Positions 2,089 to 37,462 of a DNA stretch of 64,000 nucleotides are shown one piece after another. This DNA comes from Candidatus Omnitrophota bacterium. GTDB taxonomy: Bacteria > Omnitrophota > Gorgyraeia > Duberdicusellales > 4484-171. How positions within the stretch are numbered: the first letter of the stretch is position 1; each line of letters starts with the position of its first letter. Below the pieces are notes generated by a model. The model did no database searches. It was not told the origin of the DNA and saw nothing but the letters and a program-made list of their open reading frames with translations. The DNA lies in NCBI GenBank assembly GCA_028692655.1, contig JAQUWY010000001.1, positions 24,116 to 88,115 on the forward strand. Direction: 5' to 3'. The position numbers and the translations under genes are program-made.

Positions 2089-2300
2089 TTGCATCTTGCC
2101 TGCTTGCCACAAGTATAAGCGGGATTATTTTTTTCTTGCCTACCATTAAAATATTCAGTATAATAAAACTAATAATATTTAAATAACCTTTCCTCATCTG
2201 TAGAATTTGCTTTTGATCTGTGTATATCCGTTTTTTAATCCGTGAGAATCCGTGTAGCCATTTGTAATCGGTGTAATCAATCTTTAAAGGAGGGATTTGG

Positions 2301-3617
2301 ATGAGTAGAAAACTGGTATTTTTTCTGGTTGTTTTTTTCTTTTGTTTTTCCGCGGCCGCTTTTGCGGCGGTTGAAAACATCAAGGTAAGCGGAGATATTG
2401 GCGAGCAATACTTTGCCCGCGGCCTTACTCTTGGCCAGAGCTATAACGGAAGTAATTCTCATCAGGGTGTATTCTCTCAAATCCGCTTAAGATTTGATGC
2501 TGACTTAACCGAAGGAGTAAGCGCGACTGTCAGGTTGCTTAATGAAAGGCTTTGGAATGCCGAAGATTCAAATGATGATAAAGAATCTTTAAATTTAGAT
2601 TTAGGTTATATTGAATTAAAAGAGTTTTTCTATCAACCCTTAACTTTAATTGTCGGCCGCCAGAATTTGCGTTACGGAAACGCTATGATTGTAGGTGACC
2701 CTGACACAAACCAGACCGCCGCCGGCGAAACCCCTTCGATTGTAAGTGATTTATCCTGGAAAAAGTCATTTGACTCTATCAGGGCAATCCTTGATTTTTC
2801 TCCCTACACAATTGATGTGATTTACGCCCGTTTAAAAGAAAACGAAACCGGATATCGTGATGAGCAGAATTTATACGGCGTTAACGTAGCCTATGACTGG
2901 GCTATGGGTAATGGCGCGGTAACCGAAGGCTATTTCTTCGGCACTGATAATTCTGATTCTACCGGCACCTGGACCGATAAAAAAGACAGAGTTTATGCCT
3001 TGGGTGCCAGAACCCTGTTTCATTTGAGTGAAAATTTTACCCTTGGCACAGAAGGCGCTTATCAGTTTGGCAGAAGAGCTGTTAGTGCTACCAGCCATCA
3101 GTCACGCCGGGCTTATGCCGGACAATTTATCAGTGAATATCGGTTCAACAATAAATATGATGCCAAGATTGGCATTGATTATTCTTTCTTCTCCGGAGAT
3201 AAGCCCAACAGCGACCGCTATGAAGCCTGGGACCCGATGTATGAAGACCAGACTCCAGCTGAGCTGATGAATGTTTTGCTTACCCAGAGTAACCGTCAAT
3301 TGATAGGCTTTACCGCTTCAATGGTTCCGGTTGAAGATGTAATTTTGAAAGTAAGGTATGCCCGCGGCTGGTGCGTAAAGGGATTTACTTCTTCTATTAT
3401 ACAAGTCGCCGCAGGGCCTGCCGCCGGAAACGTCTATTATGTAAACGTAGGAAAGAAGTTTCTGGGTGATGAAATCGATATCAGCGCCAATTATGATTAC
3501 ACCGAAGATATTAAATTCAGCCTTTCCGGAGCCTGCCTGCTTCCGGGGAAGGTCTTTACCGGTGAAAACAACCATCCTGCCTATTCAGTGAGAGGCGGAG
3601 TAGTGGTTAATTTCTAA
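2301..3617 (+). CDS. outer-membrane beta-barrel protein (porin-like), paralog B
   Basis: 438 aa, same length and architecture as 717..2033. Signal peptide AFA|AVEN. C-terminal ...VRGGVVVNF. Blocks of near-identical nucleotide sequence shared with paralog A. Confidence 0.6.
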   Translation: MSRKLVFFLVVFFFCFSAAAFAAVENIKVSGDIGEQYFARGLTLGQSYNGSNSHQGVFSQIRLRFDADLTEGVSATVRLLNERLWNAEDSNDDKESLNLDLGYIELKEFFYQPLTLIVGRQNLRYGNAMIVGDPDTNQTAAGETPSIVSDLSWKKSFDSIRAILDFSPYTIDVIYARLKENETGYRDEQNLYGVNVAYDWAMGNGAVTEGYFFGTDNSDSTGTWTDKKDRVYALGARTLFHLSENFTLGTEGAYQFGRRAVSATSHQSRRAYAGQFISEYRFNNKYDAKIGIDYSFFSGDKPNSDRYEAWDPMYEDQTPAELMNVLLTQSNRQLIGFTASMVPVEDVILKVRYARGWCVKGFTSSIIQVAAGPAAGNVYYVNVGKKFLGDEIDISANYDYTEDIKFSLSGACLLPGKVFTGENNHPAYSVRGGVVVNF

Positions 3618-5465: not shown

Positions 5466-6002
5466 ATGCTAAAAGAGGTATTTTATAGTACGAGTGCCCA
5501 AAAAGTCTTATGTTTCCTTTTGGCTAATCCTGAAAAGAGATTTTACGATAGGGAAGTCTCAAGGCTTACGAAAATAGGTCGAGCAGCCGGTAATTATTCG
5601 TTGCGTACTTTGATAGCGACAGGCATTGTTAAAAGGGAAAAAAGAGGCAGGATGTATTTTTACCATGTGAGCCTCGATGATCCAATTATAAGGCAGTTAA
5701 AAATAACTCAGAATCTCATCAACATTAAGCCATTAGCTGACAAATTAAGAGATATTTCTCTGAAGATAGTTCTTTATGGAAGCTCCGCAGGCGGGACTAA
5801 TCACGCAGAAAGCGATATAGATCTGTTTGTCCTTACCCGGGATGTTAAGAAGGTCAAGGATATCGTTTATAAGAGCTCTCTTAAGCAAAAGCTTCAGCAC
5901 GTAGTTACAACTCCACAGGACTTGATTAAACTAAAGAAAGATAATCCCGTATTCTATAAGGAAGTTTCCAGCGGGATAGTTCTCCACGAGGAGAAAAGAT
6001 GA
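5466..6002 (+). CDS. minimal nucleotidyltransferase (MNT) with N-terminal winged-helix, antitoxin-type
   Basis: NTase signature LYGSSAGG...ESDIDLFVL (GS...DxD). Stop overlaps the start of the downstream HEPN ORF (ATGA). Confidence 0.75.
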   Translation: MLKEVFYSTSAQKVLCFLLANPEKRFYDREVSRLTKIGRAAGNYSLRTLIATGIVKREKRGRMYFYHVSLDDPIIRQLKITQNLINIKPLADKLRDISLKIVLYGSSAGGTNHAESDIDLFVLTRDVKKVKDIVYKSSLKQKLQHVVTTPQDLIKLKKDNPVFYKEVSSGIVLHEEKR

Positions 6003-6430
6003 GCATTGAGTTCCAAAAGGCCATAGAGAAGAAACGGATATTACACTTTGCGCCAGGGAAAAATCAGGTTAAGAAAGAGCTTCTGGAGGCAGAAAACGAC
6101 TTATCCGAGGCGTTTAATAGGTTTGAGAGTGAAAAATACAAATACGCTACTATTACCGGCTACTATTCGATGTTTCATTCTGCCAGGGCCCTTATTTACT
6201 CAAAGGGATATCGTGAGAAAAGTCATTATTATCTGCTGGTTGCTTTAAACAGCCTTTTTGTAAACGCGGGGATCTTGTCTGAGGAGATAACCTCAGAATT
6301 TCATGATGCTATGGTTTTACGCGAGGATGCCGATTATCACGGCAATTTTACTAAAGAAGGCGCGGAAGCAGTGCTCAAAACAGCAAAGGAATTTTTGGCT
6401 ACTGCTAAGACTGTCTTAAAAACCAAATAA
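5999..6430 (+). CDS. HEPN domain protein (toxin-type partner of the MNT)
   Basis: 143 aa. R-x4-H HEPN motif in LREDADYHG. Translationally coupled to the upstream NTase, the classic HEPN/MNT arrangement. Confidence 0.7.
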   Translation: MSIEFQKAIEKKRILHFAPGKNQVKKELLEAENDLSEAFNRFESEKYKYATITGYYSMFHSARALIYSKGYREKSHYYLLVALNSLFVNAGILSEEITSEFHDAMVLREDADYHGNFTKEGAEAVLKTAKEFLATAKTVLKTK

Positions 6431-6928: not shown

Positions 6929-6985
6929 GGCTGAGAAACCAAAAAACGAAAAAACAGAAAAACAAGAAAACGAAAAGCATAAAGC

Positions 6986-7369
6986 ATGAGTGATATATTT
7001 CGCTTTCAGAAGTTTCCAGTATATAATGAAGCGAAATTATTTCGTCGGAAGTTAAAAGATTTAAGCAGTAGCAAATTTCCCAAGCAAGAACAGTATTGTT
7101 TGCTTTCTCAATTATGGAGAGCCTTAGATTCCATTTTACTTAATATTGCTGAGGGTTCGGATAGATACTCTGATATAGATTTTAGCAGGTTTTTAAATAA
7201 TGCGCTAACTTCTCTGAATGAAGCAGTCGCGTGCTTAGATTGTGCTTTGAGTGACTCTTATATTAATCCGGAGGAATACAGAAATTATCTTTTGGAGGCA
7301 GAGAGCCTATCTAAACAATTAAAAGCTTTTTCTTCAAAGGTAAGAAAATCGGATAGTAAGCAAAAATAG
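6986..7369 (+). CDS. four-helix-bundle protein (23S rRNA intervening-sequence protein family, TIGR02436-like), copy 1
   Basis: 127 aa. Family hallmarks: FPK.E.Y.L..QL.RA..SI..NIAEG and later ...NEA...L. Flanked by A-rich and T-rich low-complexity inverted repeats. Confidence 0.8.
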   Translation: MSDIFRFQKFPVYNEAKLFRRKLKDLSSSKFPKQEQYCLLSQLWRALDSILLNIAEGSDRYSDIDFSRFLNNALTSLNEAVACLDCALSDSYINPEEYRNYLLEAESLSKQLKAFSSKVRKSDSKQK

Positions 7370-7493
7370 ATTTTATTTATGTTTTTCCTGTTTTTAAAGC
7401 TTTTAGTTTCTTAGTTTTTATGTTTTTGGGTTTTTCAGTTTTTATGTCGTTATATCAAAAAAGTACAATTCAACGAAGGAGAAGAGGTTAATT

Positions 7494-8814: not shown

Positions 8815-9561
8815 ATGAAGAAATTTAAAGATAAGGTAATAGTCGTTACCGGAGGCTCACGGGGTATTGGCAAAGCCTGCTGTGAGGCTTTTGCCAGAGA
8901 AGGTGCCAATATAGTTTTTACTTACAACTCAAGTCAAGAGGCTGCCAAGAGCCTGAAACAGGAAATAGAAACTTCAGGTTCGCAAGTTTTAGCCTTACAG
9001 TTAGATGTGAAAAAATATGACGCCTGCCGCAAATTTGTTGAAAAAGTTTTAGACAAATTCCAGAAAATAGACGTGCTCATCAACAATGCCGGGATCATCA
9101 ACGATAAAGCCCTTATGATGATGAGCGAAAGCGACTGGCTGGATGTTATCAATACCAACCTTAACGGCACCTTTAACGTAACCAAGAACTCTATAATCTC
9201 CTTTATGAAGCAGAGAAAAGGTAATATTATCAATATTTCTTCCTTGAGCGGGATTCTGGGCCTGCCGCGCCAGGCTAATTATGCTGCCTCAAAAGGCGGG
9301 ATGATTTCTTTTACGCGCTCCCTGGCTAGGGAAGTAGCCCCGTTAAATATAAGGGTCAATGCCATAGCCCCCGGTTTCATACAAACCGATATGATAAAGG
9401 GCTTGAGGGAAGATTACGTTAAAGATGTTCTGCCGCAGATCCCCTTAGGGCGCTTCGGTGAGGCAAAAGAAGTGGCTCAAGTTGCTTTATTTTTAGCGGG
9501 AGATGAGTCGGACTATATAACCGGACAAGTCTTAAGGGTTGACGGGGGGTTGGGAATGTGA
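8815..9561 (+). CDS. fabG: 3-oxoacyl-ACP reductase (SDR family)
   Basis: VTGGSRGIGKA Rossmann motif. NNAG. Y-x3-K catalytic pair in YAASKGG. 248 aa. Confidence 0.8.
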   Translation: MKKFKDKVIVVTGGSRGIGKACCEAFAREGANIVFTYNSSQEAAKSLKQEIETSGSQVLALQLDVKKYDACRKFVEKVLDKFQKIDVLINNAGIINDKALMMMSESDWLDVINTNLNGTFNVTKNSIISFMKQRKGNIINISSLSGILGLPRQANYAASKGGMISFTRSLAREVAPLNIRVNAIAPGFIQTDMIKGLREDYVKDVLPQIPLGRFGEAKEVAQVALFLAGDESDYITGQVLRVDGGLGM

Positions 9562-9980
9562 GGCCGCAGATGATCACTGAAGGAAAAGCGCAGATGATCA
9601 CTAATAAGAAAGATTATATTTACAAAGACTTAACTTATAGAGTAATCGGGTGTTTGTATGTTGTGCATAAAGAATTAGGCAACGTCCATAAAGAAATTAT
9701 TTATCATAAAGCTTTGGCGATAGAATTAAAGAGCAAAAATATAGCATTTGTTGACGAAAAATCCATTGATGTAAAATATAAAGGTAAAAAAATAGGAGCA
9801 TACAGGCCTGATTTTATAATAGAGGATAAAGTTATTCTAGAAATCAAGGTTTCACCGGCTATAACCAGAGCTATGCAGGATCAAGTTTATTTTTATGTAA
9901 AGGGAACTAAATACAAGTTGGTTTTATTGGCTAATTTTGGAACAAGCAAAGTTGGTATCAAAAGATTAATTTATTCATAA
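9558..9980 (+). CDS. GxxExxY family protein (PD-(D/E)xK-like), copy 1
   Basis: KDLTYRVIGCLYVVHKELG...GAYRPDFIIEDKVILEIKV matches the TIGR04256-type GxxExxY family. True start is probably internal (MITNKK...). Flanked by CAGATGATCAC / GTGATCATCTG inverted repeats. Confidence 0.7.
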   Translation: MRPQMITEGKAQMITNKKDYIYKDLTYRVIGCLYVVHKELGNVHKEIIYHKALAIELKSKNIAFVDEKSIDVKYKGKKIGAYRPDFIIEDKVILEIKVSPAITRAMQDQVYFYVKGTKYKLVLLANFGTSKVGIKRLIYS

Positions 9981-10030
9981 TCTGCGATTATCTGTAGTAT
10001 TCAATTTGTGATCATCTGTGTAAAAAAGAT

Positions 10031-11257
10031 ATGAAAAAGAAAGCTGTAATAACCGGCATTGGGGTGATTTCGCCTTTAGGTAAGAGCAAGGAAGAGTTTT
10101 GGGAAAATCTGTTTAAAGGTGAATCTGTATTCCATGAGATTGCCTTGTTTGATACTGAAGGCCTTAAGGTTAAAAAAGCCGGTGAGATTTGCAATTTTGA
10201 GCCGAAAGCCATATTGGGAGATAAAGGCCTAATGGATGTTGACCGGGCCAGCCTTATTTTAATGTCGGCGGCAAAACTTGCCCTTGATGATGCGGGTTTT
10301 AAAATTACCCAGGAAAATACTCATTCTACAGGGGTATCAATTGGAACAACTTTTGGAAGCCTTTATAGTATTTCTAAGTTTGACCAAGAGTCGTTAACCG
10401 AAGGCCCTCGATATGTGAACCCTTCTATATTTCCCAGCACAGTCGGTAATTCTCCGGCCAGTCGCCTGGGTATTCGTTACAATATTAAAGGGTTTAATAC
10501 AACCATATCAACCGGAATGTGCGCCGGGCTTGATGCCCTGGATTATTCCCGGGATTTTATTAATTTAGACAGAGCCGATACTGTTGTATCCGGAGGCTTG
10601 GGAGATTTAAACATTCAGACCTTTTTAGGTTTTTATAAACTGGGGTATCTTGCCGGCTTAAAGTATGGCTCAACGGAAGAGATGTGTCCTTTTGATAAGC
10701 GAAGAAACGGGATTATCCTTTCCGAAGGAGCGGTTATTTTTATTATTCAAAACAAAGATGCAGCCAATAGCCAGAAAAAAAGAATTTATGGAGAAATCTT
10801 AGGAACGGGCTCCTGTTTTGAACCGGGTAAGTTTTATAAGTATAGCCGTAAGGGTGAGGGGATGAAAAGGGCTATGGAGCTTGCCTTGGAAGACTCAGGT
10901 ATTAAGGCCTGTGATATAGACTGCATTTTCGCTAATGCCAATTCCACTAAAGACGCTGATTTAATCGAATCAAAAGCCATAAAAGAGGTTTTCGGGGAAA
11001 ACGTTCCTGTCACGGCAGTAAAATCACTCGTAGGAGAAACCTTTAGCGCTTCAGGTACGATGTCAGTTTTGGCAGCACTGGGAGCTTTTGAAAAGCAAAG
11101 CATTCCCGCAATAGCAAATTACCGCGAGAAAGATGAAGATTGCGATTTAGATTATGTAGTCGGAGAATCTCGCAAGAAAAGCATATCAAAAGTAATGATA
11201 AATTCATTCGATCCTAACGGCGCTAGTAGTTGTATGATTGTAGGTAAACCTGTATGA
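10031..11257 (+). CDS. beta-ketoacyl synthase family protein lacking both catalytic His (CLF-like but retaining the active-site Cys)
   Basis: Thiolase-fold KS with active-site Cys in TGMCAGLDA. The HGTGT box is replaced by NANST and the downstream GH by GE. Confidence 0.65.
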   Translation: MKKKAVITGIGVISPLGKSKEEFWENLFKGESVFHEIALFDTEGLKVKKAGEICNFEPKAILGDKGLMDVDRASLILMSAAKLALDDAGFKITQENTHSTGVSIGTTFGSLYSISKFDQESLTEGPRYVNPSIFPSTVGNSPASRLGIRYNIKGFNTTISTGMCAGLDALDYSRDFINLDRADTVVSGGLGDLNIQTFLGFYKLGYLAGLKYGSTEEMCPFDKRRNGIILSEGAVIFIIQNKDAANSQKKRIYGEILGTGSCFEPGKFYKYSRKGEGMKRAMELALEDSGIKACDIDCIFANANSTKDADLIESKAIKEVFGENVPVTAVKSLVGETFSASGTMSVLAALGAFEKQSIPAIANYREKDEDCDLDYVVGESRKKSISKVMINSFDPNGASSCMIVGKPV

Positions 11258-11308
11258 CACGGATGAACACGGATTTTTAAGAAACACGGATATACACGGA
11301 TAGATATT

Positions 11309-11683
11309 GTGGGAAAACTTGAGCAAGAAGATTTGACCTATAGAATAAGAGGCGCGATTTTCGAAGTGTATAATATATTAGGTCCGGGGTTTAAAGAGAT
11401 AATCTACCATAACTCTTTACGAGAAGAATTTGATAAGCGAAAGATTAAATATGCAGAGAAAAAAAGAGTTAAGATTGACTACAAAGGTAAACAAGTAGGT
11501 TTGTATGAACCGGACTTTGTAGTTGAAGGCAAGGTGATTATAGAGACAAAAGCGGTGGAAGTTATGCCTAAGGCGTTTGAAAAACAGTTGTATAATTATC
11601 TGAAAGCTACAGAGTATAAAATCGGAATTCTGGTTAATTTCGGTAGTGAAAAACTGGATATGAGGCGCCGTATCTACGGATAA
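11309..11683 (+). CDS. GxxExxY family protein, copy 2 (GTG start)
   Basis: LTYRIRGAIFEVYNILGPG...GLYEPDFVVEGKVIIETKAV, paralog of 9558..9980. Flanked by CACGGAT x4 upstream and ATCCGTG-type repeats downstream. Confidence 0.7.
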   Translation: MGKLEQEDLTYRIRGAIFEVYNILGPGFKEIIYHNSLREEFDKRKIKYAEKKRVKIDYKGKQVGLYEPDFVVEGKVIIETKAVEVMPKAFEKQLYNYLKATEYKIGILVNFGSEKLDMRRRIYG

Positions 11684-11816
11684 AATTATCCGTGACAGAG
11701 ATGCAGACACACAAGGATTTAAAATGGATGGATATAGATGAATATATTCTGTGTTAATCTGTATATTCAATCCGTGGGAATCCGTGTATGCAATCTGTGT
11801 GTATCCGTGTAATAAA

Positions 11817-12254
11817 ATGAAACAACTAAACATAGAAGAAATCCAGAAAATACTACCCCAGAGGTATCCGTTTTTGCTTATTGATAAAATAATAGAAATT
11901 GAGCCAGGCCAAAGAGTGGTAGCGATTAAGAATGTAAGCAATACCGAGGGGTTTTTTTCGGGGCATTTTCCCGGTAAACCCGTTATGCCAGGAGCTTTGA
12001 TAATTGAGGCAATGGCGCAAGCCTCGATAGTTCTTTACTGGAGTAAATATAAAGATGAATTAGTTAAAACACCTAATTATTATCTTGTTTCGGTCAAGGT
12101 AGATTTAGAAAACCCGGTTTACCCAGGTGATAGTTTAATGATTGAGTCTAAAGCGCTAAAAATTATTCCCAAGGCCGGTTTTGTTGAAGTGAACGCATCT
12201 ATAGACAAAACTATTATTGCCAAAGGCCAGGCTACATTTGCGATAGAAAGATGA
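11817..12254 (+). CDS. fabZ: 3-hydroxyacyl-ACP dehydratase
   Basis: LPQRYPFLLIDKIIE...GHFPGKPVMPGALIIEAMAQ hot-dog fold FabZ signature. ATG at 11817. The track ORF extends upstream through the repeat region. Confidence 0.85.
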   Translation: MKQLNIEEIQKILPQRYPFLLIDKIIEIEPGQRVVAIKNVSNTEGFFSGHFPGKPVMPGALIIEAMAQASIVLYWSKYKDELVKTPNYYLVSVKVDLENPVYPGDSLMIESKALKIIPKAGFVEVNASIDKTIIAKGQATFAIER

Positions 12255-13456
12255 AAAAAAGAATAGTAATAACAGGCTTAGGTTTGGTAACTTCCATAGG
12301 AATTGGTAAAGACGATTTTTGGAAAGCGCTCATTTCCGGAAAGTCCGGGATATCAGAGATAGACTCTTTTGATACTTCAGAACACACTACTCATTTTGGC
12401 GGCCAAGTTAAGAATTTTAAAGCTGAAATGTTTTTAGATAGAAGGAAAATAAAAGCAATGGCTAGAGCGTCACACTTAGCCATTGCTGCGACAAAATTAG
12501 CAATTGAAGATGCCAATATAGGCCTTAAAAAGCGAAACACTAATAAAGTTGCAGTTATGTTTGGGACTACTGGTGGAGAAATCCAGGAAATGGAAAAAAT
12601 GGATATCATCTGGTTAAAACAAGGCAAAGAAGCTGTGGGCTTAAAATCAATAGTTCAATATCCGGTAAATAACATTTCAGCTAATGTAGCTAAGGAATTA
12701 AAACTTAAAGGCTTTAATAGAATGTTTACCACTGCTTGTGCCGCCGGAAATTATGCCCTTGGCTATGGGCTTGACCTTATGAGGTTAGGAAAAACCGACA
12801 TAGCTGTTGTTGGCGGTTCAGATGCTTTTTCTTATCTTTCCTTTACCGGCTTTAATCAGGTTCGGGCGGTTGCGCCTTTAAAGTGCCAGCCTTTTGATAA
12901 AAACAGAAAAGGTATGATTCCCGGGGAAGGCTCAGGCGTTTTAATTTTAGAAACCTTAGAGTCAGCCATGGAGCGAAAAGCCAATATATATGCTGAAGTC
13001 TTAGGTTATGGGCTAAGCTGTGATGCTTACCATATGACACAACCCAATGTTGAAGGGGTAAGCAAATGTATGCAAAAAGCTTTAGATGATTCAGGCATAA
13101 AGCCTGAGGAAGTAGATTATATTTGTGCGCATGGAACAGGAACCCGCCATAATGACAAAGTTGAGTGTGCAGCGATAAAAAACGTCTTTGGAGATAGAAA
13201 AATAGCAGTCAGCTCTATTAAGTCAATGCTTGGCCATTGCATGGGTGCGGCTTCGGCAATCGAGATGGCAGCTTGTTGTTTGGCAATAAAGGAAGGGATT
13301 CTGCCTCCTACGATAAGTTTTGAAACACCTGATTTAGAATGTAATATTGATTGTGTTCCTAATAAAGCAAGAAAACAGAAAGTAAAAGTTGTTCTAAACA
13401 ATGGTTTTGCTTTTGGTGGAAATAACTGTTGTGTAGCAATTAGAAAATTCAATTAA
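12251..13456 (+). CDS. fabF: beta-ketoacyl-ACP synthase II
   Basis: Cys in TTACAAGN. HGTGT present (CAHGTGTRHND). GHCMGAAS. Overlaps fabZ by ATGA. Confidence 0.85.
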   Translation: MKKRIVITGLGLVTSIGIGKDDFWKALISGKSGISEIDSFDTSEHTTHFGGQVKNFKAEMFLDRRKIKAMARASHLAIAATKLAIEDANIGLKKRNTNKVAVMFGTTGGEIQEMEKMDIIWLKQGKEAVGLKSIVQYPVNNISANVAKELKLKGFNRMFTTACAAGNYALGYGLDLMRLGKTDIAVVGGSDAFSYLSFTGFNQVRAVAPLKCQPFDKNRKGMIPGEGSGVLILETLESAMERKANIYAEVLGYGLSCDAYHMTQPNVEGVSKCMQKALDDSGIKPEEVDYICAHGTGTRHNDKVECAAIKNVFGDRKIAVSSIKSMLGHCMGAASAIEMAACCLAIKEGILPPTISFETPDLECNIDCVPNKARKQKVKVVLNNGFAFGGNNCCVAIRKFN

Positions 13457-13467
13457 AGGAGGAGACT

Positions 13468-13734
13468 ATGTCAGAAAATGCGTTTGAAGGATTAGGAAAA
13501 GAAATTCAGCAGTTAATTGCCGAAGTTACTGGAAAAAGTATGGAGGATTTAAGACCCGAAGCTAATTTTTGGGAAGATTTGGGTATTGATTCAATTAAGG
13601 CCATTGAGATAACAGTAGCCATAGAGAGAAAATACAAGATAAGGATAGGCGATGAGCAAATACCACAAATAATGACCGTTGGCAAAGCTGTTGAGGTGGT
13701 TCGACAAGCTCTGGAGAAAAAGAAAAATGCATAA
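13468..13734 (+). CDS. acpP: acyl carrier protein
   Basis: 88 aa. Phosphopantetheine-attachment region LGIDSIKAIE (conserved Ser). SD aaaggagg upstream. Confidence 0.8.
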   Translation: MSENAFEGLGKEIQQLIAEVTGKSMEDLRPEANFWEDLGIDSIKAIEITVAIERKYKIRIGDEQIPQIMTVGKAVEVVRQALEKKKNA

Positions 13735-15025
13735 AAAAAGAATAGTTGTTACTGGAATTGGACCCATGGCTTCAGTAGGTGTGGGGAAGGATTTATTTTG
13801 GAAGGGAATTTTAGATAAGAATATTAATATTAGTTTAGAAAAAACCTGTATAGACTCAGAACTTTGGGATGAGTTTTATCTTCATAAAATAAATAATTTT
13901 TCCATAAACGACTTCGGCATCGATAAAGAGAGATTAAATGACATAAAAGAATGGAAAGATGGAGGAAGTGTTTTAGAATTAGATTATCTTATTGCCCTGG
14001 TCAAACTAGCATTAGACGACAGCAAACTCAATTATAATGCTAGCAATAATGACATTGGTTTAGTCCTAGCTCATGAGAATTTAGGCATAATGCAGTTTGC
14101 TTATCAAATAAGTGATTTAGCATACGAAGGCCTGATTGATAAAAAAAGATCTGATCTATCTAAGAGAGATTTTTTTGATGAGTTTTACCGTAAATTTTTA
14201 AAGATTGGGTACGATATTCAAACTTTTCCTGATTTATTTCATATCGCAAGGGTTTTTAATATTCGTAATTATTCTTTATTCATAAATAATGCCTGTGCTT
14301 CAGGGCTTTATGCGTTAGAGGCAGCGAGCAATGTAATAAATAGTGGCCAGGCTAAAGCTATGGTTATCGCTGTCTCAGACTGTCCAGAAATATATAAATA
14401 TATTTGGTTTAAAAGTTTGGGGATATATTCTGTTGATGGAATATGCCGGCCATTTTGTAAGAATAGCAACGGCCTTGTTTTTGGCGACGGGGGTGTGGGC
14501 ATGGTGGTTGAAGATTTAGAGCATGCCAGAGAAAGAGGTGCGGAGATTTATGCCGAATACTTAGGGGGAGGTTTTGATTTGGAAGGTTGGAAAATTACCG
14601 TTCCTCAGCTAGGCAGTGATTCTTATCAAAAAGCAATGCAGAAAGCATTCGCGCAAAGTAATGTTAATAAGGATGAAATTGATTTGCTTTGTCCGCATGG
14701 GGTAGGCTCACAAGTCATAGATTATTATGAAGCTAAGGCTATAACAGATATATTTGGTAAAAATCCGCAAAAACCCTTAATGACTACATTTAAGCCTTAT
14801 GTTGGGCATAATTTAGGAGGTAGCGCGCTTTTAGAAACTGCGATACTTTTACTTTCCTTAAAAAATAATGTTATTCCGCCTACTTTAAATTATGATGAGC
14901 CTGACCCTAAATTTAATATTTCTTTGGTTAAAGAAAAAAAAGAAGTAGAGCTAAAAACTGTTATGAAAGCGTGCTGTGCTTTTGCAGGGTTTAACGCGGC
15001 GGCGATATTTAGAAAAATTGACTGA
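13727..15025 (+). CDS. beta-ketoacyl synthase family protein (atypical, with N-terminal insertion)
   Basis: Cys in NNACASGLYA. His in CPHGVGS and in VGHNLGGSA. Overlaps the ACP stop. About 430 aa. Confidence 0.7.
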   Translation: MHKKRIVVTGIGPMASVGVGKDLFWKGILDKNINISLEKTCIDSELWDEFYLHKINNFSINDFGIDKERLNDIKEWKDGGSVLELDYLIALVKLALDDSKLNYNASNNDIGLVLAHENLGIMQFAYQISDLAYEGLIDKKRSDLSKRDFFDEFYRKFLKIGYDIQTFPDLFHIARVFNIRNYSLFINNACASGLYALEAASNVINSGQAKAMVIAVSDCPEIYKYIWFKSLGIYSVDGICRPFCKNSNGLVFGDGGVGMVVEDLEHARERGAEIYAEYLGGGFDLEGWKITVPQLGSDSYQKAMQKAFAQSNVNKDEIDLLCPHGVGSQVIDYYEAKAITDIFGKNPQKPLMTTFKPYVGHNLGGSALLETAILLLSLKNNVIPPTLNYDEPDPKFNISLVKEKKEVELKTVMKACCAFAGFNAAAIFRKID

Positions 15026-15027
15026 CT

Positions 15028-16578
15028 ATGAAAAAAACCGACTATGATGTAATTATTATTGGCGCGGGAATTGGTGGTTTGGTTTCTGGCAATATTTTAG
15101 CTAAAAATGGATTAAGGGTTTTATTATTGGAGAAAAATAACGTACCGGGCGGTTCAGTTTCTACATTTTATAAAGATGGTTACCCCATTGACATAACTCA
15201 TTCTTTTTGTGGAATGAAGCAAGGTTCGTTTATCAGGAAGATTTTTGATTATCTAGATATTTATAGAAAGTTAGAACTTATTGAGTTAAAAAAAGCTTTT
15301 ATATATATATCTGAGCATCGAAATGAACCAATCTTTTGTTATACAGATACAGAACGATACAAAAAAGAACTTAAATCCCATTTTCCATATGAAAGGAAAA
15401 GTATAGATGGATTTTTTAGAGAAATTGAATTAATCTGGAATGAAGAGATTCTAAAAAGTTATTACAACCCTTCCTTTTATCAGTTATTAAGTTACCCTTT
15501 TCTATTTCCTCGTCTTTGTAAATACAGAAATTATACTTTCGAAAGGTTTCTTAGTATTTTTACTGGTTCTAAAGAATTGAAAGAAGTGCTGTCTGTGGGC
15601 TGGCCTTATTTAGGTTTAGACAGATTTTCGGTTTCTGCTTTATACATGGTGTGTTTAATAATGGCCTATTGGAAAGAAGGCAGTTTTTACGTTAAGGGAG
15701 GGGTTGGAAAAATTGCTGAAGCATTAGCTTGTAATTTTAAAAATATGGGAGGCTATCTTCTTTACAATGTAGATATTGAATCTATAATAGTGAATGACAA
15801 AAGAACAGCGTTGGGCGTAAGGGATAAAAATAATGAAGTTTATCGTGGAGAAAAGATAGTCTCAAATGTTGATACTAAAAAAACATTTTTTGAATTAGTA
15901 GGACGTACATTTCTATCAAAAAAAACTTTGAGAAAGATTCAAAAGTCGATAGCATCTTGTTCTCTTATTCAAGTTCATATAGCGGCGGAGGCTCAAATTA
16001 AGGAAGATTACCTATCCGCAGGCTCAATAGTATTACCGTTTCGTATCGATTTAGAAGAAACCATAAAGGCTTTATTAGGTGTTGACACAAGCCCCTTTGG
16101 TAATTCTTCAATGATGGTAAGCATTAATTCTCTGGATTGTTTTTCGAATGATAGTAAAGAAAATGAATATATGTTCAATGTGGCATGGTTCCCCGCACAT
16201 TATAGTTTATGGAAAAAACTTATGGTTTTTTACGGGAGGAGGAAATATGAGATTTTGAAAGAAGAAATTGCTCAAAAAGTCATCAAGATATTACAGAAAT
16301 CAAAAATCATTGGTAGATTTAAATTCAGCAATGTATTGACGCCTCTTTCTGTAGAGAATTGGCTTAATGCATCTGAGGGAGCAATCTATGATTTTGCCGC
16401 TATTCCTCAACAAATGCTTCTTTCACGTTTCAAACATACAACATGTATAGATAAACTGTATCTTGTAGGTGCAAAAACATTTCCTGGCGCCGGTATCGCC
16501 GGCGCTTTTTGTTCTGCCGTCTGTCTTTCAGATATTCTTTTAAAAGGAGGCCTTTCCAAGGGCAAATTTACGTTATAA
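15028..16578 (+). CDS. FAD-dependent oxidoreductase, phytoene-desaturase (CrtI/COG1233) family, paralog 1
   Basis: N-terminal dinucleotide fold DVIIIGAGIGGLVSGNILAKNGLRVLLLEKNNVPGG. 516 aa. C-terminal GAGIAGA motif. Confidence 0.7.
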   Translation: MKKTDYDVIIIGAGIGGLVSGNILAKNGLRVLLLEKNNVPGGSVSTFYKDGYPIDITHSFCGMKQGSFIRKIFDYLDIYRKLELIELKKAFIYISEHRNEPIFCYTDTERYKKELKSHFPYERKSIDGFFREIELIWNEEILKSYYNPSFYQLLSYPFLFPRLCKYRNYTFERFLSIFTGSKELKEVLSVGWPYLGLDRFSVSALYMVCLIMAYWKEGSFYVKGGVGKIAEALACNFKNMGGYLLYNVDIESIIVNDKRTALGVRDKNNEVYRGEKIVSNVDTKKTFFELVGRTFLSKKTLRKIQKSIASCSLIQVHIAAEAQIKEDYLSAGSIVLPFRIDLEETIKALLGVDTSPFGNSSMMVSINSLDCFSNDSKENEYMFNVAWFPAHYSLWKKLMVFYGRRKYEILKEEIAQKVIKILQKSKIIGRFKFSNVLTPLSVENWLNASEGAIYDFAAIPQQMLLSRFKHTTCIDKLYLVGAKTFPGAGIAGAFCSAVCLSDILLKGGLSKGKFTL

Positions 16579-16588
16579 TAACAATATT

Positions 16589-18022
16589 ATGAAAAAAAAG
16601 CGTGATTACGATGTTGCGATTATTGGTTCTGGTATAGGGGGCTTAGTTTGCGGTTGCTATTTGGCAAAAGCGGGCTTGAAGACAGCAATAATTGAAAAAC
16701 ATCATTCTCCGGGAGGGTATTGCACTTCTTTTAAACGAAGAGGGTATAGATTTGATACATCTGTGCACTATATAGGGGGGATAAAAAAAGGAGCGCTAAG
16801 TGAAATATTGATGAATTTAGAGATGGAAACCTCATTAAAGTTTCATCAAGATGATCCCTCAGACGGCATTTTTTTACCGGATACGTCAACTTATATTAGA
16901 GCCAATTCTCAGGATACAATTAAAGAATTTAAGAAGAGTTTTCCTTCGGAGAGCAAAGACATTGAAAGGTTTTTTAGATTCATCATGCAAAATGATATCG
17001 CATCTATTTATAGAAAAACGATAGAAATTACTTTAGAAGAATTACTAAATGATTTTTTTAGTGATACGAATCTTCGAGCAACCATAGGAATTCCTTTTTT
17101 AGGAAATATGGGTTTGCCGCCCGGTAAAATTTCTGCTTTTGCTGCCATTGTTTTCTTTCGGGAATTTCTATTAGACCCAGGATATTATCCTGTTGGAGGG
17201 ATGCAAGCTTTTGCTGACTGTTTAGCTAACAGATTTAAAGGCTATGGTGGCGATTTAGTTTTGTCGAAAGAAATTTCCAAAATAATATTAAATAACAATG
17301 TTGCCGAAGGGGTAGTGACTTCATCTGGAAAAGAAATCAAGTCCAAATTCGTAGTTTCTAATATCGATGCTACGCGAACTTTCAAACATCTTATTAAGTC
17401 TAAAACCAAAGAGGCGCTAGTCGTAGACAAGATGGTGCCATCTAATTCTATTTTTGCTGTTTATGTAGGCCTCAAAAGAACTTTTAAAGATAGCTTTAAA
17501 AATCTTTATGATACTTGGCTATTCAAAAATTATGATTTAAATGATAGCTATAAATATTTGACAAAGAACATAGCTGAAGGCCAAATTTCTGGAGTCATGG
17601 TATCATTTCCTTCCTTCAAAGACCTTTCTTTTACAAAGACATCTAAGTTTACTGCCGAAATTTTTACAATGGCCCCATATGTGAGTGAAAATTTTTGGGC
17701 TATCAATCAAGAATTAGTAACTGAGGCGGTTTTAAACTTTGTAGACGAAAATATTCCAGGTTTCAAAAAATACGTAGATTTTAAGTTAGTCGCGACTCCT
17801 CACACGTATTATAGGTATACTATGAATAGGGAAGGAGCTGCTTTTGGTTGGGCGTCAATCATAAACCAGATAAAATCTTCTTTGTTGCCCCAAGTTTCGT
17901 CAGTCAAGAATTTATTTGTAGTTGGGCATTGGTGCACTATGGGAACGGGGCAAGGTGGTGTGTCAACCGTGGCTTTAGCTGGGAAAAAGGTTTACGAAAG
18001 GATAACTAACTTGTTACTATGA
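16589..18022 (+). CDS. FAD-dependent oxidoreductase, phytoene-desaturase (CrtI/COG1233) family, paralog 2
   Basis: DVAIIGSGIGGLVCGCYLAKAGLKTAIIEKHHSPGG. 477 aa. Tandem to paralog 1. Confidence 0.7.
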   Translation: MKKKRDYDVAIIGSGIGGLVCGCYLAKAGLKTAIIEKHHSPGGYCTSFKRRGYRFDTSVHYIGGIKKGALSEILMNLEMETSLKFHQDDPSDGIFLPDTSTYIRANSQDTIKEFKKSFPSESKDIERFFRFIMQNDIASIYRKTIEITLEELLNDFFSDTNLRATIGIPFLGNMGLPPGKISAFAAIVFFREFLLDPGYYPVGGMQAFADCLANRFKGYGGDLVLSKEISKIILNNNVAEGVVTSSGKEIKSKFVVSNIDATRTFKHLIKSKTKEALVVDKMVPSNSIFAVYVGLKRTFKDSFKNLYDTWLFKNYDLNDSYKYLTKNIAEGQISGVMVSFPSFKDLSFTKTSKFTAEIFTMAPYVSENFWAINQELVTEAVLNFVDENIPGFKKYVDFKLVATPHTYYRYTMNREGAAFGWASIINQIKSSLLPQVSSVKNLFVVGHWCTMGTGQGGVSTVALAGKKVYERITNLLL

Positions 18023-20184: not shown

Positions 20185-20268
20185 TATTTTATGATTACGT
20201 AGTCTGGTATATGTTGACCGTTGAAAGGTTGCGTAGCTGGAAACGTTAAAGGTTTAGCGTTAATCGTT

Positions 20269-20700
20269 ATGGAAGATAAAAAAATAAGAAGCTTTCACGA
20301 TTTAGATGTATATCAAAATTCATATGGAGCCATGCTGATAGTTTATAAAGAAATAATGCCTAAATTACCCAAAGAAGAGGAATATGACCTTAAAGATCAG
20401 CTTAGAAGGTCAACTAAAGCTATTCCAAGATTGATAGCCGAAGGGCATTCTAAAAGACATCAAAAGAGGGGATTTCAGAAATATATAGACGATTCTTTAG
20501 CAGAGTCTAACGAGACAATTGTTTCACTAAGTCAGGCTCGCGATTTGTACGCAAATTACGTAGATACTAAATTATGCAATGAACTGATTGATAGATACGA
20601 TAAAATAAGCAGGCAGTTATATAATTTAGCTTTGGCTTGGGATAAATTTAATAGGCGCAGCCGTAAAACGACAAACGATTCGAGCTACACAACCGTATAG
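20269..20700 (+). CDS. four-helix-bundle protein (23S rRNA IVS protein family), copy 2
   Basis: FHDLDVYQNSY...LRRSTKAIPRLIAEGHSKRH...AESNETI. ATG at 20269. The track ORF starts at 20221. Flanked by ggttgcgtagctgg / cgagctacacaacc inverted repeats. Confidence 0.75.
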   Translation: MEDKKIRSFHDLDVYQNSYGAMLIVYKEIMPKLPKEEEYDLKDQLRRSTKAIPRLIAEGHSKRHQKRGFQKYIDDSLAESNETIVSLSQARDLYANYVDTKLCNELIDRYDKISRQLYNLALAWDKFNRRSRKTTNDSSYTTV

Positions 20701-21189: not shown

Positions 21190-22371
21190 ATGAAAGCACA
21201 TCCCGACTATAGGAAAGACTTGGAGATTGCCGCGAAGCAGATGATTCTTATCCACCGTGTGGATACTTTGATTAAACTGATTCTGCGCACTATAGTCAGG
21301 TCACTTAAGGTTAAACATGCCGGGCTTCTTTTATATGATAAAGATAGAGATGAATATGTGGTTAAGGTGTCCCGCGGTAAGGGTGGATTCAAGATTCCTT
21401 CCGGATTTACCAAAATAAATAAAGATAACGCTTTAATAAGATATTTTACTGAAGATAGCCTGCGTATTTTCGGCAAGGATGTTTTACTTCTGCGCCGGTT
21501 GAATGCTTTTTTAAGCTCAAAAAAGACCAAAAAGGATAAAAACTTAAGAACTTTTCTTGAAAGTATTAAGCTGCAGTTTTCTTTATATAACGCAAAGGCT
21601 TGCATTCCGGGATTTTTTAGGGATAAACTTATTTGTATTTTTTTTCTTGGCCAAAAGTTAGACGGTAAAGATTTCAACCGGGACGAGTTAGGATTTCTTT
21701 CGGTTCTAAGCTCAGACGCAGTAATGGCTATCCAAAATGCTTGGTTTTTCCAGGATTTGAATAACCAGCTTGGTATAAATAAAAAGCTCTTTTTACAGAC
21801 TGTGATGGCGCTTGCTTCAGCAATTGAAGCCAAAGATAAATATACAATAGGCCACACAGAAAGAGTATCAAAATATTCTTTGATAGTTGCCCAGGAAATT
21901 AAAGCAATGAAGAAAGTTCCTTCTAAGGACAGGGAAGATTTTCTGGAAAATTTAAGGATAGCGTCTTTGCTTCACGACATAGGAAAAATCGGCGTCAGGG
22001 AAGATGTGCTTAACAAAAATGGGTTTCTTGATCAAGAAGAACGCCGCGAAATCGAAAAACACCCAACGATAGGGTTTTCGATATTGAAACAAGTTGATGA
22101 ATTTCATGAGCCTATTTTAGGGGTGAAATACCACCATGAGCGTTATGATGGCAAAGGATATCCCGAAGGCATAAAGGGAAAGAAAATTCCTCTTATTGCC
22201 CAGATAATTGCCGTAGCAGATACCTTTGATGCGATGACCTCTGATAGGCCATATCGTAAGGGTTTATCCAAGGAAGAAGCAGCTAGGGTAATTGAGGAAA
22301 ATAAAGGCAAGCAATTTTCTCCTTTGATCGTGGATGCGTTCTTAAGGGTGTATAAGGCAGGGAAGCTGTAA
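21190..22371 (+). CDS. GAF domain / HD-GYP phosphohydrolase
   Basis: HD motif LLHDIGKIGV. HD-GYP signature HHERYDGKGYP. Confidence 0.8.
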   Translation: MKAHPDYRKDLEIAAKQMILIHRVDTLIKLILRTIVRSLKVKHAGLLLYDKDRDEYVVKVSRGKGGFKIPSGFTKINKDNALIRYFTEDSLRIFGKDVLLLRRLNAFLSSKKTKKDKNLRTFLESIKLQFSLYNAKACIPGFFRDKLICIFFLGQKLDGKDFNRDELGFLSVLSSDAVMAIQNAWFFQDLNNQLGINKKLFLQTVMALASAIEAKDKYTIGHTERVSKYSLIVAQEIKAMKKVPSKDREDFLENLRIASLLHDIGKIGVREDVLNKNGFLDQEERREIEKHPTIGFSILKQVDEFHEPILGVKYHHERYDGKGYPEGIKGKKIPLIAQIIAVADTFDAMTSDRPYRKGLSKEEAARVIEENKGKQFSPLIVDAFLRVYKAGKL

Positions 22372-22815
22372 TAGTCGATAGTCCATAGTCCATAGATGAT
22401 AGGCTGTACAGGTTAAGGTTAAGGTTGAGGTTGAGAAAGACAGAAAAACCGAAAAACCAAAGAATCGAAAAACGGAAGAACTAAAAACTGAAAGACCAAA
22501 AAACCGAAGAACATAAAAACTAAAAGACTGAAAAACATAAAGAATAGGGAAGTTAAGACCTTGTCTACCGGCAGGCAGGCGCTAACCGAAAACCGAAAGA
22601 ATATTTCTTTAGTAGAAATACGATAGAAATATATGGAAATACATAGAAATAAATTGTTTTGAATTTTATTCATTTGAATTTGTTTAGGGATTAGAATTTC
22701 GGATTTAGTATTTGGTTGGTTAGTATTATTGGAATTTTTGATGTTCTGGCGCTCTGGTGACTAGTGTACTGGTGTTCTTAAAATATTTATTTAACGCGTA
22801 AGCATTCTGCGAATA

Positions 22816-22903
22816 GGAGAGGTCGCATAGCCCGGTCGAGTGCGCGTGTTTGGAGAACACGTATCCGCTTTGCGGATCCAGGGTTCGAATCCCTGCCTCT
22901 CCG
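22816..22903 (+). tRNA. tRNA-Ser (anticodon GGA)
   Basis: Acceptor GGAGAGG/CCTCTCC. Anticodon stem CGTGT/ACACG with loop TTGGAGA. Long variable arm ATCCGC-TTT-GCGGAT. T arm CAGGG-TTCGAAT-CCCTG. No encoded CCA. Confidence 0.8.
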
Positions 22904-23021: not shown

Positions 23022-23342
23022 ATGCCTTTCATGTTCGAAAATCTGGAGGTTTATAAGAAGGCTATCGATATCGCCGAAGAGCTTGGCGTTCTCACGGAAT
23101 CTTTTCCAAAAGGTAACTATTATTTAGCCGATCAGTTGAATCGAGCGGCTCTATTAATCGCGACAAATATTGCCGAGGGCAATGGTAAGTATCATAAAGC
23201 AGATAGGATTAACTTTTTTCGCATCGCTCGTGGTTCTGCGTTTGAATGTATTCCCATATTAGAATTATGTAAGCGCAAAAGATTAATCAAAGAAGAGGAC
23301 GCTTCAGGCATCAATTCGGCTAAGGCCTCTTTGAAATGGTAA
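23022..23342 (+). CDS. four-helix-bundle protein (23S rRNA IVS protein family), copy 3
   Basis: LEVYKKAIDIAEEL...FPKGNYYLADQLNRAALLIATNIAEGNGKYH...FRIARGSAFE. Confidence 0.8.
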   Translation: MPFMFENLEVYKKAIDIAEELGVLTESFPKGNYYLADQLNRAALLIATNIAEGNGKYHKADRINFFRIARGSAFECIPILELCKRKRLIKEEDASGINSAKASLKW

Positions 23343-30129: not shown

Positions 30130-30797
30130 CTTTGGTTTTATAACAAGCCGCATTCTTTAGATAACAATATAATGCTTCTGTTCCCGCCGGCCACAGTCCA
30201 CAGTCCACAGTCGATAGTCCACGGTCCACAGACTATAGGATATCCAGGATGAGGTTAAGGTTGAGAAAAACTAAAAAACCAAAAGACAAAAAAACAGAAA
30301 ACTAAAGAACTAAAAACAGAAAAACTGAAAGACCAAAAAACCGAAGAACATAAAAACTAAAAGATTGAAAAACATAAAGAATAGGGAAGTTAAGACCTTG
30401 CCTACCGGCAGGCAGGCGCTAACCGAAAAACGAAAGAACATTTCTTTAGCGGAAATACGGTAGAGATATATGGAAACAAATAGAAATAGATTGTTTGAAA
30501 AAATTCTTCGGGTCACAGGTCGCAAGCCACAGGTATCAGGTAACAGGTTATTTAAAATAACCAATAACCAAGCAACAAGAAACAAATAAATTACAATATT
30601 CAATAACCAAACAGAATGAAAAATCCAAAATCCAAATACTACCAAATCCCAAACAAATTCAAAATCCCAAATCCCAATTTTGGATTTGGTAATTGGGATT
30701 TATTTGGTAGTATTGGCATTATTGGAATTTGGGATTTTTAGCATTTTCGCTCTAACAACTTTGTTATTGAAGATAATGCGTAAGCATTCTGCGAATA

Positions 30798-30890
30798 GGA
30801 GGGGTGGCCGAGCTCGGTTTAAGGCGGCGGTTTGCTAAACCGTTGTACGGTCGAAAGTCCGTACCTGGGGTTCAAATCCCCACCCCTCCG
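30798..30890 (+). tRNA. tRNA-Ser (anticodon GCU)
   Basis: Acceptor GGAGGGG/CCCCTCC. Anticodon stem GCGGT/ACCGT with loop TTGCTAA. Long variable arm GTACGG-TCGAAAGT-CCGTAC. T arm TGGGG-TTCAAAT-CCCCA. CCA encoded at 30891-30893. Confidence 0.8.
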
Positions 30891-31092
30891 CCAATTTAAA
30901 CCTTTGGTTTAAATTGGCGGAGCAATCGATAATCGAAATTCGATTATAAGAGGTTATCGATTGCGGTCAAATTTTAACTATCGATTTTCAGAAAATTGTA
31001 ATCGCTATGCCGACGATTGTACCGAATGATCTAAGATAAACAAATTTCAACACACTGCCAAAAACACAGTGTTTAGTGTATAATAGGGTTAA

Positions 31093-33834: not shown

Positions 33835-34200
33835 TTGCAGATGGAGAAGATAAATAGCTTTAAGCAGTTAAAAATTTGGCAAAAGGGAATTGAGATTGTC
33901 AAAGACATATATAGCATTACAGAAAAATTTCCCAATAAAGAGACTCGCGGTTTAATTTCGCAGATGCGAAGAGCGTCCGTATCTATACCGTCTAATATAG
34001 CTGAAGGTTTTAAGAGATATCACAATAAAGAATATAAGCAATTTCTGTTTATTGCTTTAGGCTCTTGCGCGGAATTAGAAACTCAGTTTATCATTTCAAA
34101 TGAGCTCAGGTATATAGACAAAATAAATATGGAATTCATTTGTGAAAAATTAGACCATCTTTCAAGAATGGCTACGGTTTTAATTGGTAAACTCAAATAA
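33835..34200 (+). CDS. four-helix-bundle protein (23S rRNA IVS protein family), copy 4
   Basis: FPNKETRGLISQMRRASVSIPSNIAEG...LGSCAELETQ. Likely ATG at 33841. Flanked by an 18-bp perfect inverted repeat ttcgtatatagtatgtcg / cgacatactatatacgaa. Confidence 0.8.
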   Translation: MQMEKINSFKQLKIWQKGIEIVKDIYSITEKFPNKETRGLISQMRRASVSIPSNIAEGFKRYHNKEYKQFLFIALGSCAELETQFIISNELRYIDKINMEFICEKLDHLSRMATVLIGKLK

Positions 34201-36886: not shown

Positions 36887-37003
36887 ATAAGAGCAGGTTG
36901 AGGCAGAGGTAGAGGTTGAGGAAATTCCAAATTCAAATATTGCCAAATTCCAAATAATTTCCAAACCTCAATTTCCAAAGCCTAAACGGATTCAATTAGT
37001 TTA

Positions 37004-37222: not shown

Positions 37223-37462
37223 AAAAGGCCACCAATCTATTATACTACGAAATGTAAGGGGGAGAAGCTGGAAGTTGAAGATTGTGTGGGGAAGGGTTTC
37301 GTACGGAGACCTCGACGCTTACTCAGATATTTCGTTTTCGGTTACTCAACCTAGCTCGCCTTTGGCGAATCGTTTTGAAAATAGAAAATCGACATTAGAC
37401 CGCAATAGAAAATTTTTCCTTCAATTTTCGATTCTCTATTTTCTATTGCTCTGCTTCATAAA

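Follow-up and report, generated by a model that had tools for sequence, protein, structure and literature searches.

Intervening sequences (IVSs) of bacterial 23S rRNA genes are inserts of ~0.4-0.6 kb that carry one small open reading frame (ORF) behind a poor ribosome-binding site (Coxiella burnetii, Leptospira; PMC4990558). In Coxiella, two to three tandem GACAGAT heptamers, variable in number among strains, precede the poorly translated ORF, and the inverted repeats at the termini pair into a stem, which RNase III cleaves at the first repeat (PMC4990558). Members of the 23S_rRNA_IVP gene family have also been reported inside cas operons and were taken there as functional associates (PMC3936711). 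Here we describe two cassettes within an operon of protein-coding genes, each consisting of a GxxExxY gene bracketed by inverted arrays of short repeats. They lie in a 64,000-nt stretch of DNA (the window) from a Candidatus Omnitrophota bacterium (GCA_028692655.1, contig JAQUWY010000001.1, positions 24,116 to 88,115). Element 1 separates a FabG-type gene from the first ketosynthase gene (KS1), and element 2 separates KS1 from a FabZ-type gene, so that KS1 has a cassette on either side. Full-text literature searches returned no account of GxxExxY genes flanked by repeat arrays, nor of cassettes resembling an IVS within operons that encode proteins.

The elements resemble 23S IVSs in their length, in their single small ORF with its poor ribosome-binding site, and in the tandem heptamers of varying copy number before it (CACGGAT and CGCAGAT here). 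Complementary termini that enclose the ORF in a stem, seen here as a predicted fold, and a reliance on host transcription with host function preserved are further points in common. A first-pass annotation of this DNA, made from the sequence alone, had likened the elements to a miniature mobile or IVS-like unit, and the heptamers and the inverted-repeat stem justify the latter term. The differences are of place, cargo and stem. 23S IVSs occupy helix 25 or 45 (H25, H45) of the rRNA, encode S23p (PF05635) and have one 28-bp stem, whereas these elements occupy junctions between protein-coding operon genes, encode PF13366 GxxExxY proteins (PF05635 cassettes lie elsewhere in the window) and have arms that are arrays of two to six short units. 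Our preferred reading, to which we assign a probability of about 0.5, is that they are IVS-like, promoterless selfish cassettes whose arrays pair in the operon transcript, allowing IVS-like processing or insulation.

The arrays fill the junctions almost completely (coordinates in Table 1). In element 1, the first repeat unit lies 3 nt from the FabG stop codon (TGA, 9559-9561), the second unit includes the ATG of GxxExxY copy 1 at 9594, and alternative in-frame starts within the array are found at 9558 (GTG) and 9570 (ATG). The downstream array stops 10 nt short of the KS1 start codon. The motif CAGATGATCAC begins at 9567 and 9591 on the forward strand, and its reverse complement occupies 10008-10018; allowing at most one mismatch, it has four matches against 0.46 expected, a number that none of 100 shuffles reached. 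A repeat search joined 9567-9599 with 9986-10018 as inverted arms of 33 nt that are 73% complementary. In element 2, the first upstream unit adjoins the KS1 stop codon (TGA, 11255-11257) and the downstream array stops 6 nt short of the FabZ start codon. ATCCGTG occurs at 11688, 11770, 11780 and 11803, with the variants ATCTGTA at 11757 and ATCTGTG at 11793, and the repeat search recovered two pairs of inverted arms (11253-11275/11792-11814 and 11284-11304/11767-11787). The window holds 13 occurrences of CACGGAT against 3.1 expected, again a count seen in 0 of 100 shuffles.

Hidden Markov model (HMM) matches, the shuffle test and the repeat counts thereby confirm what the first-pass annotation had described: copy 1 between fabG and the ketosynthase, with two CAGATGATCAC units upstream and the reverse complement downstream, and copy 2 between the ketosynthase and fabZ, with four CACGGAT units upstream and ATCCGTG-type units downstream. 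Its "perfect palindrome" at the copy 2 stop codon fares less well; an inverted repeat does span the stop, but it consists of only 7-bp arms around a 4-nt loop. The units are short, the genome is AT-rich and many related contigs are short, all of which might suggest chance, low-complexity sequence or an assembly artefact. The shuffle results, a near-identical arrangement in a second genome and the recurrence of the architecture in independent assemblies of many phyla make such an origin extremely improbable.

The two encoded proteins (124-128 aa) are ~40% identical to each other and score well above the cutoffs of both family models (PF13366 PDDEXK_3, 112.9 bits for copy 1 and 124.4 bits for copy 2, cutoff 22; TIGR04256 GxxExxY, cutoff 35 bits). 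Both have a PD-(D/E)XK core with conserved acidic and lysine residues and a restriction-endonuclease-like fold, with the nuclease motif intact. E30, D69, E79 and K81 are conserved in copy 2, and the D-ExK catalytic residues are invariant. A search of PDB sequences with the GxxExxY family profile gave no match. Pfam revealed no transposase, the PD-(D/E)XK protein being the sole ORF of each element. PADLOC returned weak Cas4b matches for copy 1 alone (best E 1.5e-05, 23.3 bits), no match for copy 2 and no toxin-antitoxin match.

Orthologous gene clusters were obtained through homologues of KS1 and the contigs that encode them. A metagenome scan with KS1 yielded one close relative and differently ordered clusters, and no empty site by that route. 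An empty state is provided by another Omnitrophota contig (L094; KS1 62% identical), which has the order FabG-KS-FabZ-KS-ACP-KS-FAD oxidase found in the window. Both of its junctions are empty and consist of 4-nt gene overlaps, TTGA at FabG/KS1 and ATGA at KS1/FabZ. In a close relative (L083; KS1 91% identical), both GxxExxY cassettes are at the same places as in the window with 99% identical DNA, and element 1 has one 24-nt upstream unit fewer (one unit against two). A third contig (L091; KS1 65% identical) has genes of the four-helix-bundle 23S_rRNA_IVP family at those two junctions, each with its own inverted arrays, and additional ORF-less array pairs at FabZ|KS2, LOG|99-aa and 99-aa|FabG. 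A fourth (L095) has an ORF-less pair at KS1|FabZ only, ACGCNAAT units followed by ATTNGCGT units. Because different cargo independently fills junctions that overlap in the empty state, the pattern is better explained by insertion than by repeated precise deletion. Both cassettes are insertions at exact stop/start junctions that left the operon intact; the suggestion that a unit had invaded the operon without disrupting it is borne out by the empty sites of L094 and the filled sites of L083, L091 and L095.

Compared with the empty site of L094, element 2 is flanked by ATGA...ATGA and element 1 by TGA...TGA. These direct repeats could be a target duplication of 3-4 bp or, equally, the outcome of selection for intact stop and start codons. 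Downstream of element 2, the FabZ gene (11817-12254) is only 65.5% identical to its counterpart in L083 (6787-7221), although identity is 83-98% for the genes beside it and 98% for the cassettes. From sequence comparison, this divergence suggests that the region beyond element 2 was recombined or the gene replaced.

When a genome collection was scanned with a GxxExxY alignment, 80 loci were recovered, belonging to Omnitrophota, Planctomycetota, Nitrospirota, Nitrospinota, Patescibacteria, Chloroflexota, Acidobacteriota, Bacteroidota and other phyla, 71 of which, the two window copies included, were analysed. The upstream flank and the reverse-complemented downstream flank share at least three 7-mers in 59 of the 71, and the mean number of shared 7-mers is 7.6 within a locus against 2.3 for cross-locus pairs. 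Array units occupy the intergenic spacer as they do in the window: a median of three units per side over a span of ~550 nt, with median gaps of 7 nt between the upstream stop and the first unit and 11.5 nt between the last unit and the start codon that follows. The unit itself is variable (CACGGAT, CAGATGATCAC, CGCGGAT, CGCAGAT, CGCTAAT, GACGCGAAT, GATTACACAGAT, CACGAAT, CACGACG, CACGATG and CGAAGAC were found). It differs among protein subfamilies, yet both arms match within every locus, and in acidobacterial elements at an orthologous position the unit differs while the arms stay matched. As far as these sequences tell, the conserved property is the complementarity of the arms and not the sequence of the unit. 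Both neighbours share the orientation of the cassette in 45 loci and both oppose it in 1; we conclude from this co-orientation that the cassette relies on host transcription.

The arrays extend into the reading frames of some homologues. Close homologues of copy 1, ~120 of them in several phyla, have N-termini reading MITD, QMITD or MIAD, and members with a C-terminal extension finish with CDHL, DDHR or similar tails; both kinds of terminus result from translation of CAGATGATCAC and GTGATCATCTG units. In close homologues of copy 2, the units are CACGGAT. Away from cassettes, the units are scarce (11 clusters across 312 kb of neighbouring sequence), so the repeats are not ubiquitous irrespective of GxxExxY genes, in keeping with the association drawn by the first-pass annotation. 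This scarcity bears directly on a REP/RAYT-like arrangement, in which a domesticated nuclease is flanked by members of a repeat family and disperses that family genome-wide. Such a model would accommodate a gene between inverted copies of its own repeat family, a repeat type that co-varies with the gene subfamily, and solo arrays such as the one at 2196-2254 of the window. It is nevertheless very improbable, given the concentration of units at cassettes, the presence of several gene copies per genome in place of one gene with hundreds of repeats, and a protein that is not a HUH/Y1 transposase.

Several loci have further arrays. In L018 (4784-4900), L015 (1299-1440) and the flanks of L029 and L033, a second, ORF-less pair of opposed arrays follows the cassette, or the downstream arrays are duplicated, which looks like nested or tandem cassette remnants. 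Contigs with close homologues are mostly 1-3 kb long, and a public contig from a metagenome-assembled genome (L002, JAQUSC010000094.1, 3155 nt) begins just ahead of KS1, near element 1. Repeat-bracketed cassettes may fragment short-read assemblies.

Folding the flanks as RNA gave the pairing that an IVS-like stem-loop would need. In the predicted minimum free energy structure of element 2, all four upstream units pair with downstream units (z = -5.0), in that of element 1 both arms are paired (z = -2.2), and in both the modelled stems enclose the cassette ORF. Across the collection, 41 of 70 loci have a best predicted duplex between the two flanks that is more stable than its shuffled controls (z < -2). 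These predictions are consistent with the following sequence of events. A cassette would insert exactly where the stop codon of one gene meets the start codon of the next, the two genes being translationally coupled, and would be transcribed through read-through of the host operon. In the transcript, the two arrays would pair into a long imperfect stem, with the ORF looped out and its start codon buried. By analogy with the 23S rRNA IVS, this stem could be a substrate of RNase III, and cleavage would detach the cassette from the cistrons on either side, or at least insulate it from them, which would let the operon tolerate the insertion. The encoded nuclease would be the obvious candidate for the DNA break made in colonizing new junctions.

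Two lines of evidence bear on where the arrays act. The architecture is common to two unrelated families of ORF and to ORF-less forms, and at vertically inherited positions the unit drifts without loss of complementarity between the arms. Together, these observations suggest arrays that work in cis at the resident site, whichever protein is encoded between them.

Other results weigh against pairing in the transcript or fail to favour it. Transition mismatches within the aligned arms divide evenly into G.U-compatible and A.C-type (41 vs 41), which is no RNA-specific signature. In 47 of 70 loci, the flanks form a more stable duplex in sense than in antisense, but the same bias recurs with shuffled flanks, so the preference is compositional. 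Searched over the whole window at gathering thresholds, Rfam has no family at the elements and no rRNA, its only matches being two tRNAs and one group I intron. Clear arrays are wanting in ~12 of the 71 GxxExxY loci, and the IVS precedent itself concerns rRNA and another ORF family.

The predicted stem around the ORF would also suit closure in cis as a means of regulating a resident nuclease gene that may be toxic or of benefit to the host, in which hok-like 5'-3' pairing or binding of the protein to its arrays keeps translation low while processing and mobility are incidental. The position of the start codon in or beside the last upstream unit (9594; the ATG is inside the unit in the W1 subfamily defined below), the lack of an obvious Shine-Dalgarno sequence in the window copies and the stability of the elements at one locus in populations would all agree with closure. 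Against this stand the ORF-less array pairs, which have nothing to regulate, and the acidobacterial copies, which have a good Shine-Dalgarno sequence between array and start codon. Closure also leaves unexplained the exact junction placement and why IVP genes take the place of GxxExxY genes at those junctions, and PADLOC offers no more than its Cas4b matches to copy 1. We therefore judge closure unlikely.

Alternatively, the elements may act as DNA, with the arrays serving as multi-site terminal inverted repeats, like the ends of Mu or Tn7, that are cut or mobilized by their own PD-(D/E)XK nuclease; the ORF-less pairs would then be non-autonomous. The unit type follows the protein subfamily across phyla and within one genome (W1, CAGATGATCAC, with QMITD and CDHL termini; W2, CACGGAT), as might be expected if the nuclease recognized it, and the catalytic D-ExK residues are invariant. 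ORF-less pairs with GxxExxY-type units at other junctions, the ATGA and TGA repeats around elements 2 and 1, and the symmetric mismatch spectrum of the arms, which is expected of duplex-DNA sites, point in the same direction. Other findings speak against it. The architecture is shared by cassettes whose gene encodes a four-helix bundle and no nuclease, the units do not spread through the flanking DNA, and selection for intact stop and start codons can account for the short direct repeats. Complementary arms at vertically inherited positions imply a function at the resident site, and we know of no strand-transfer activity for a 124-aa PD-(D/E)XK protein. Signs of recent transposition are lacking as well: identical proteins occur on 14-18 contigs and have the same gene neighbours on every contig that extends far enough to reveal them, and current mobility, which the first-pass annotation had implied, is unsupported to the same extent. 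On balance, we consider a DNA-level element somewhat unlikely.

Pairing of the arrays in the transcript remains our preferred reading, and a more speculative one may be considered. GxxExxY cassettes, 23S_rRNA_IVP cassettes and ORF-less pairs could form one phylum-spanning class of mobile elements at operon junctions, an mRNA counterpart and perhaps the source of the 23S IVS. Their arrays would be recognized by their own nuclease, giving autonomous and non-autonomous forms, and they would colonize new junctions by a mechanism unlike that of described transposases. This unification is tentative, and we think it rather unlikely in its full form.

Several other described systems resemble the cassettes in part. 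Free-standing homing endonuclease genes (phage seg/mob; the PD-(D/E)XK enzyme I-Ssp6803I) are likewise small nuclease genes in intergenic slots, variably present and non-disruptive. They need no flanking inverted repeats and have one cognate site, whereas the elements here lie in varied contexts, and no feature of their architecture is as conserved as the arrays. [quoted passage not shown] Those families are multi-copy, have a fixed consensus and depend on DDE or HUH transposases; here the unit is particular to the cassette, no transposase is present and dispersal is slight. The fold-back of hok/sok (tac-fbi) offers a parallel for long-range 5'-3' pairing that would bury the start of a potentially harmful small ORF, but hok/sok involves an antisense RNA and a killer peptide, and here repeat arrays would pair inside a polycistronic transcript. 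A type III toxin-antitoxin system of the ToxIN kind, with direct repeats of ~36 nt upstream only and then a terminator and a ToxN-type endoribonuclease, was rejected, the units being 7-13 nt with inverted copies downstream and no PADLOC match. A CRISPR-like reading was rejected because of the length and spacing of the units and because their downstream copies are inverted.

The host operon (Table 1) had been labelled an essential fab operon, a description that the gene content does not support. All three ketosynthases (288.7, 431.2 and 189.5 bits) score under the fabF equivalog cutoff of 493.75. FabZ is above the NF000582 cutoff and below that of TIGR01750 in the HMM search, with ApeI/ApeP-like matches; two phytoene-desaturase-like FAD oxidases lie downstream, and FabD, FabH and FabI are absent from the cluster. 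With this gene content the operon looks aryl-polyene-like and is probably not a housekeeping fab operon. The cluster is kept in Omnitrophota and Elusimicrobiota, as seen on contigs with KS1 homologues. Upstream of it, at 5466-6430, lies a nucleotidyltransferase and HEPN gene pair without flanking arrays; a similar pair is found inside the cluster of one relative, at the acyl carrier protein (ACP)|FabZ junction (L092, 1027-1741).

Table 1 Features of the two elements, their host operon and related arrays in the window.
Feature	Coordinates	Strand	Evidence or composition
Element 1 upstream array	9565..9601	+	Two CGCAGATGATCAC units (9565-9577, 9589-9601), 24-nt period
GxxExxY copy 1	9594-9980	+	PF13366 E 1.5e-32; TIGR04256 109.8 bits; PD-(D/E)XK nuclease-fold
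Element 1 downstream array	9980..10021	+	ATCTGCG (9980), ATCTGTA (9990), GTGATCATCTGTG (10008-10020); reverse complements of upstream units
Element 2 upstream array	11257..11301	+	Four (A)CACGGAT units at 11258, 11268, 11285, 11295
GxxExxY copy 2	11309..11683	+	GTG start; PF13366 E 3.8e-36; TIGR04256 128.9 bits; PD-(D/E)XK nuclease-fold
Local hairpin across copy 2 stop codon	11676..11693	+	ACGGATA 11676-11682 / TATCCGT 11687-11693, 4-nt loop; units at 11675, 11688
Element 2 downstream array	11747..11810	+	TTCTGTG, ATCTGTA, ATCCGTG x2, ATCTGTG, ATCCGTGT; 23-nt period
FabG-type 3-oxoacyl-ACP reductase	8815..9561	+	TIGR01830 310.3 bits (cutoff 297.75); Pfam adh_short
Ketosynthase KS1	10031..11257	+	PF00109/PF02801; fabF model 288.7 bits, under 493.75 cutoff
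FabZ-type dehydratase, ApeI/ApeP-like	11817..12254	+	PF07977; NF000582 140.8 bits; ApeI-like/ApeP-like matches
KS2	12251-13456		Co-directional with cluster
ACP	13468-13734		Co-directional with cluster
KS3	13727-15025		Co-directional with cluster
Two FAD amine-oxidase/phytoene-desaturase-like genes	15028-18022		Co-directional with cluster
Solo array	2196..2254	+	ATCTGTA, ATCTGTG, ATCCGTG x2; no GxxExxY gene
Sister cassette with 23S_rRNA_IVP gene 6986-7369	6933..7447	+	PF05635 E 3.9e-24; four-helix-bundle
tRNA-Ser (GGA)	22816-22903		
tRNA-Ser (GCT)	30798-30893		

Cassettes of the same design recur elsewhere in the window with PF05635 cargo. It contains four 23S_rRNA_IVP genes (6986-7369, 20221-20700, 23022-23342 and 33835-34200), and the first, third and fourth are built like the GxxExxY cassettes, with inverted arrays of their own (GAAAAAC/GTTTTTC, CAATAG-type and CGTATATAGTATG). 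In the sister cassette at 6933-7447, GAAAAAC-type units lie upstream and GTTTTTC-type units downstream, and its IVP gene is missing at the homologous junction of L091. The gene at 20221-20700 lies between a histidine kinase gene and that of its response regulator. The solo array sits between tandem Alginate_exp porin-like genes (717-2033 and 2301-3617) and may be a cassette remnant or an array that functions by itself.

Arrays are also found near structured RNA genes. Each tRNA-Ser gene is directly preceded by a non-coding stretch of ~400-600 nt (22371-22790 and 30180-30790); the two stretches are homologous and are made of consecutive arrays of CCACAGT, GAAAAAC, AAATAC/ATAGAAAT, CACAGGT, AACCAA and AAATCCC, and the second stretch terminates in a clear palindromic array pair. 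On the reverse strand, a group I intron (RF00028, 82.7 bits, 37546-37780) within 37503-37805 interrupts an apparent tRNA that ARAGORN did not call; the exon halves suggest, by their sequence, an Asn-GUU-like anticodon loop. ORF-less inverted arrays lie beside this intron at 37377-37450 and 36922-36979.

If the preferred reading is true, two very large families of unknown function, TIGR04256 GxxExxY and TIGR02436/PF05635, would share a common genomic logic as the cargo of repeat-bracketed cassettes at operon junctions. Their presence in cas operons and other conserved clusters, read so far as a sign of functional partnership (PMC3936711), would be explained in the same way, and such cassettes confuse guilt-by-association annotation. 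The operon described here would be a natural case of tolerance to a 0.5-kb insert between translationally coupled genes, and the 23S rRNA intervening sequences would gain a wider family and a plausible origin.

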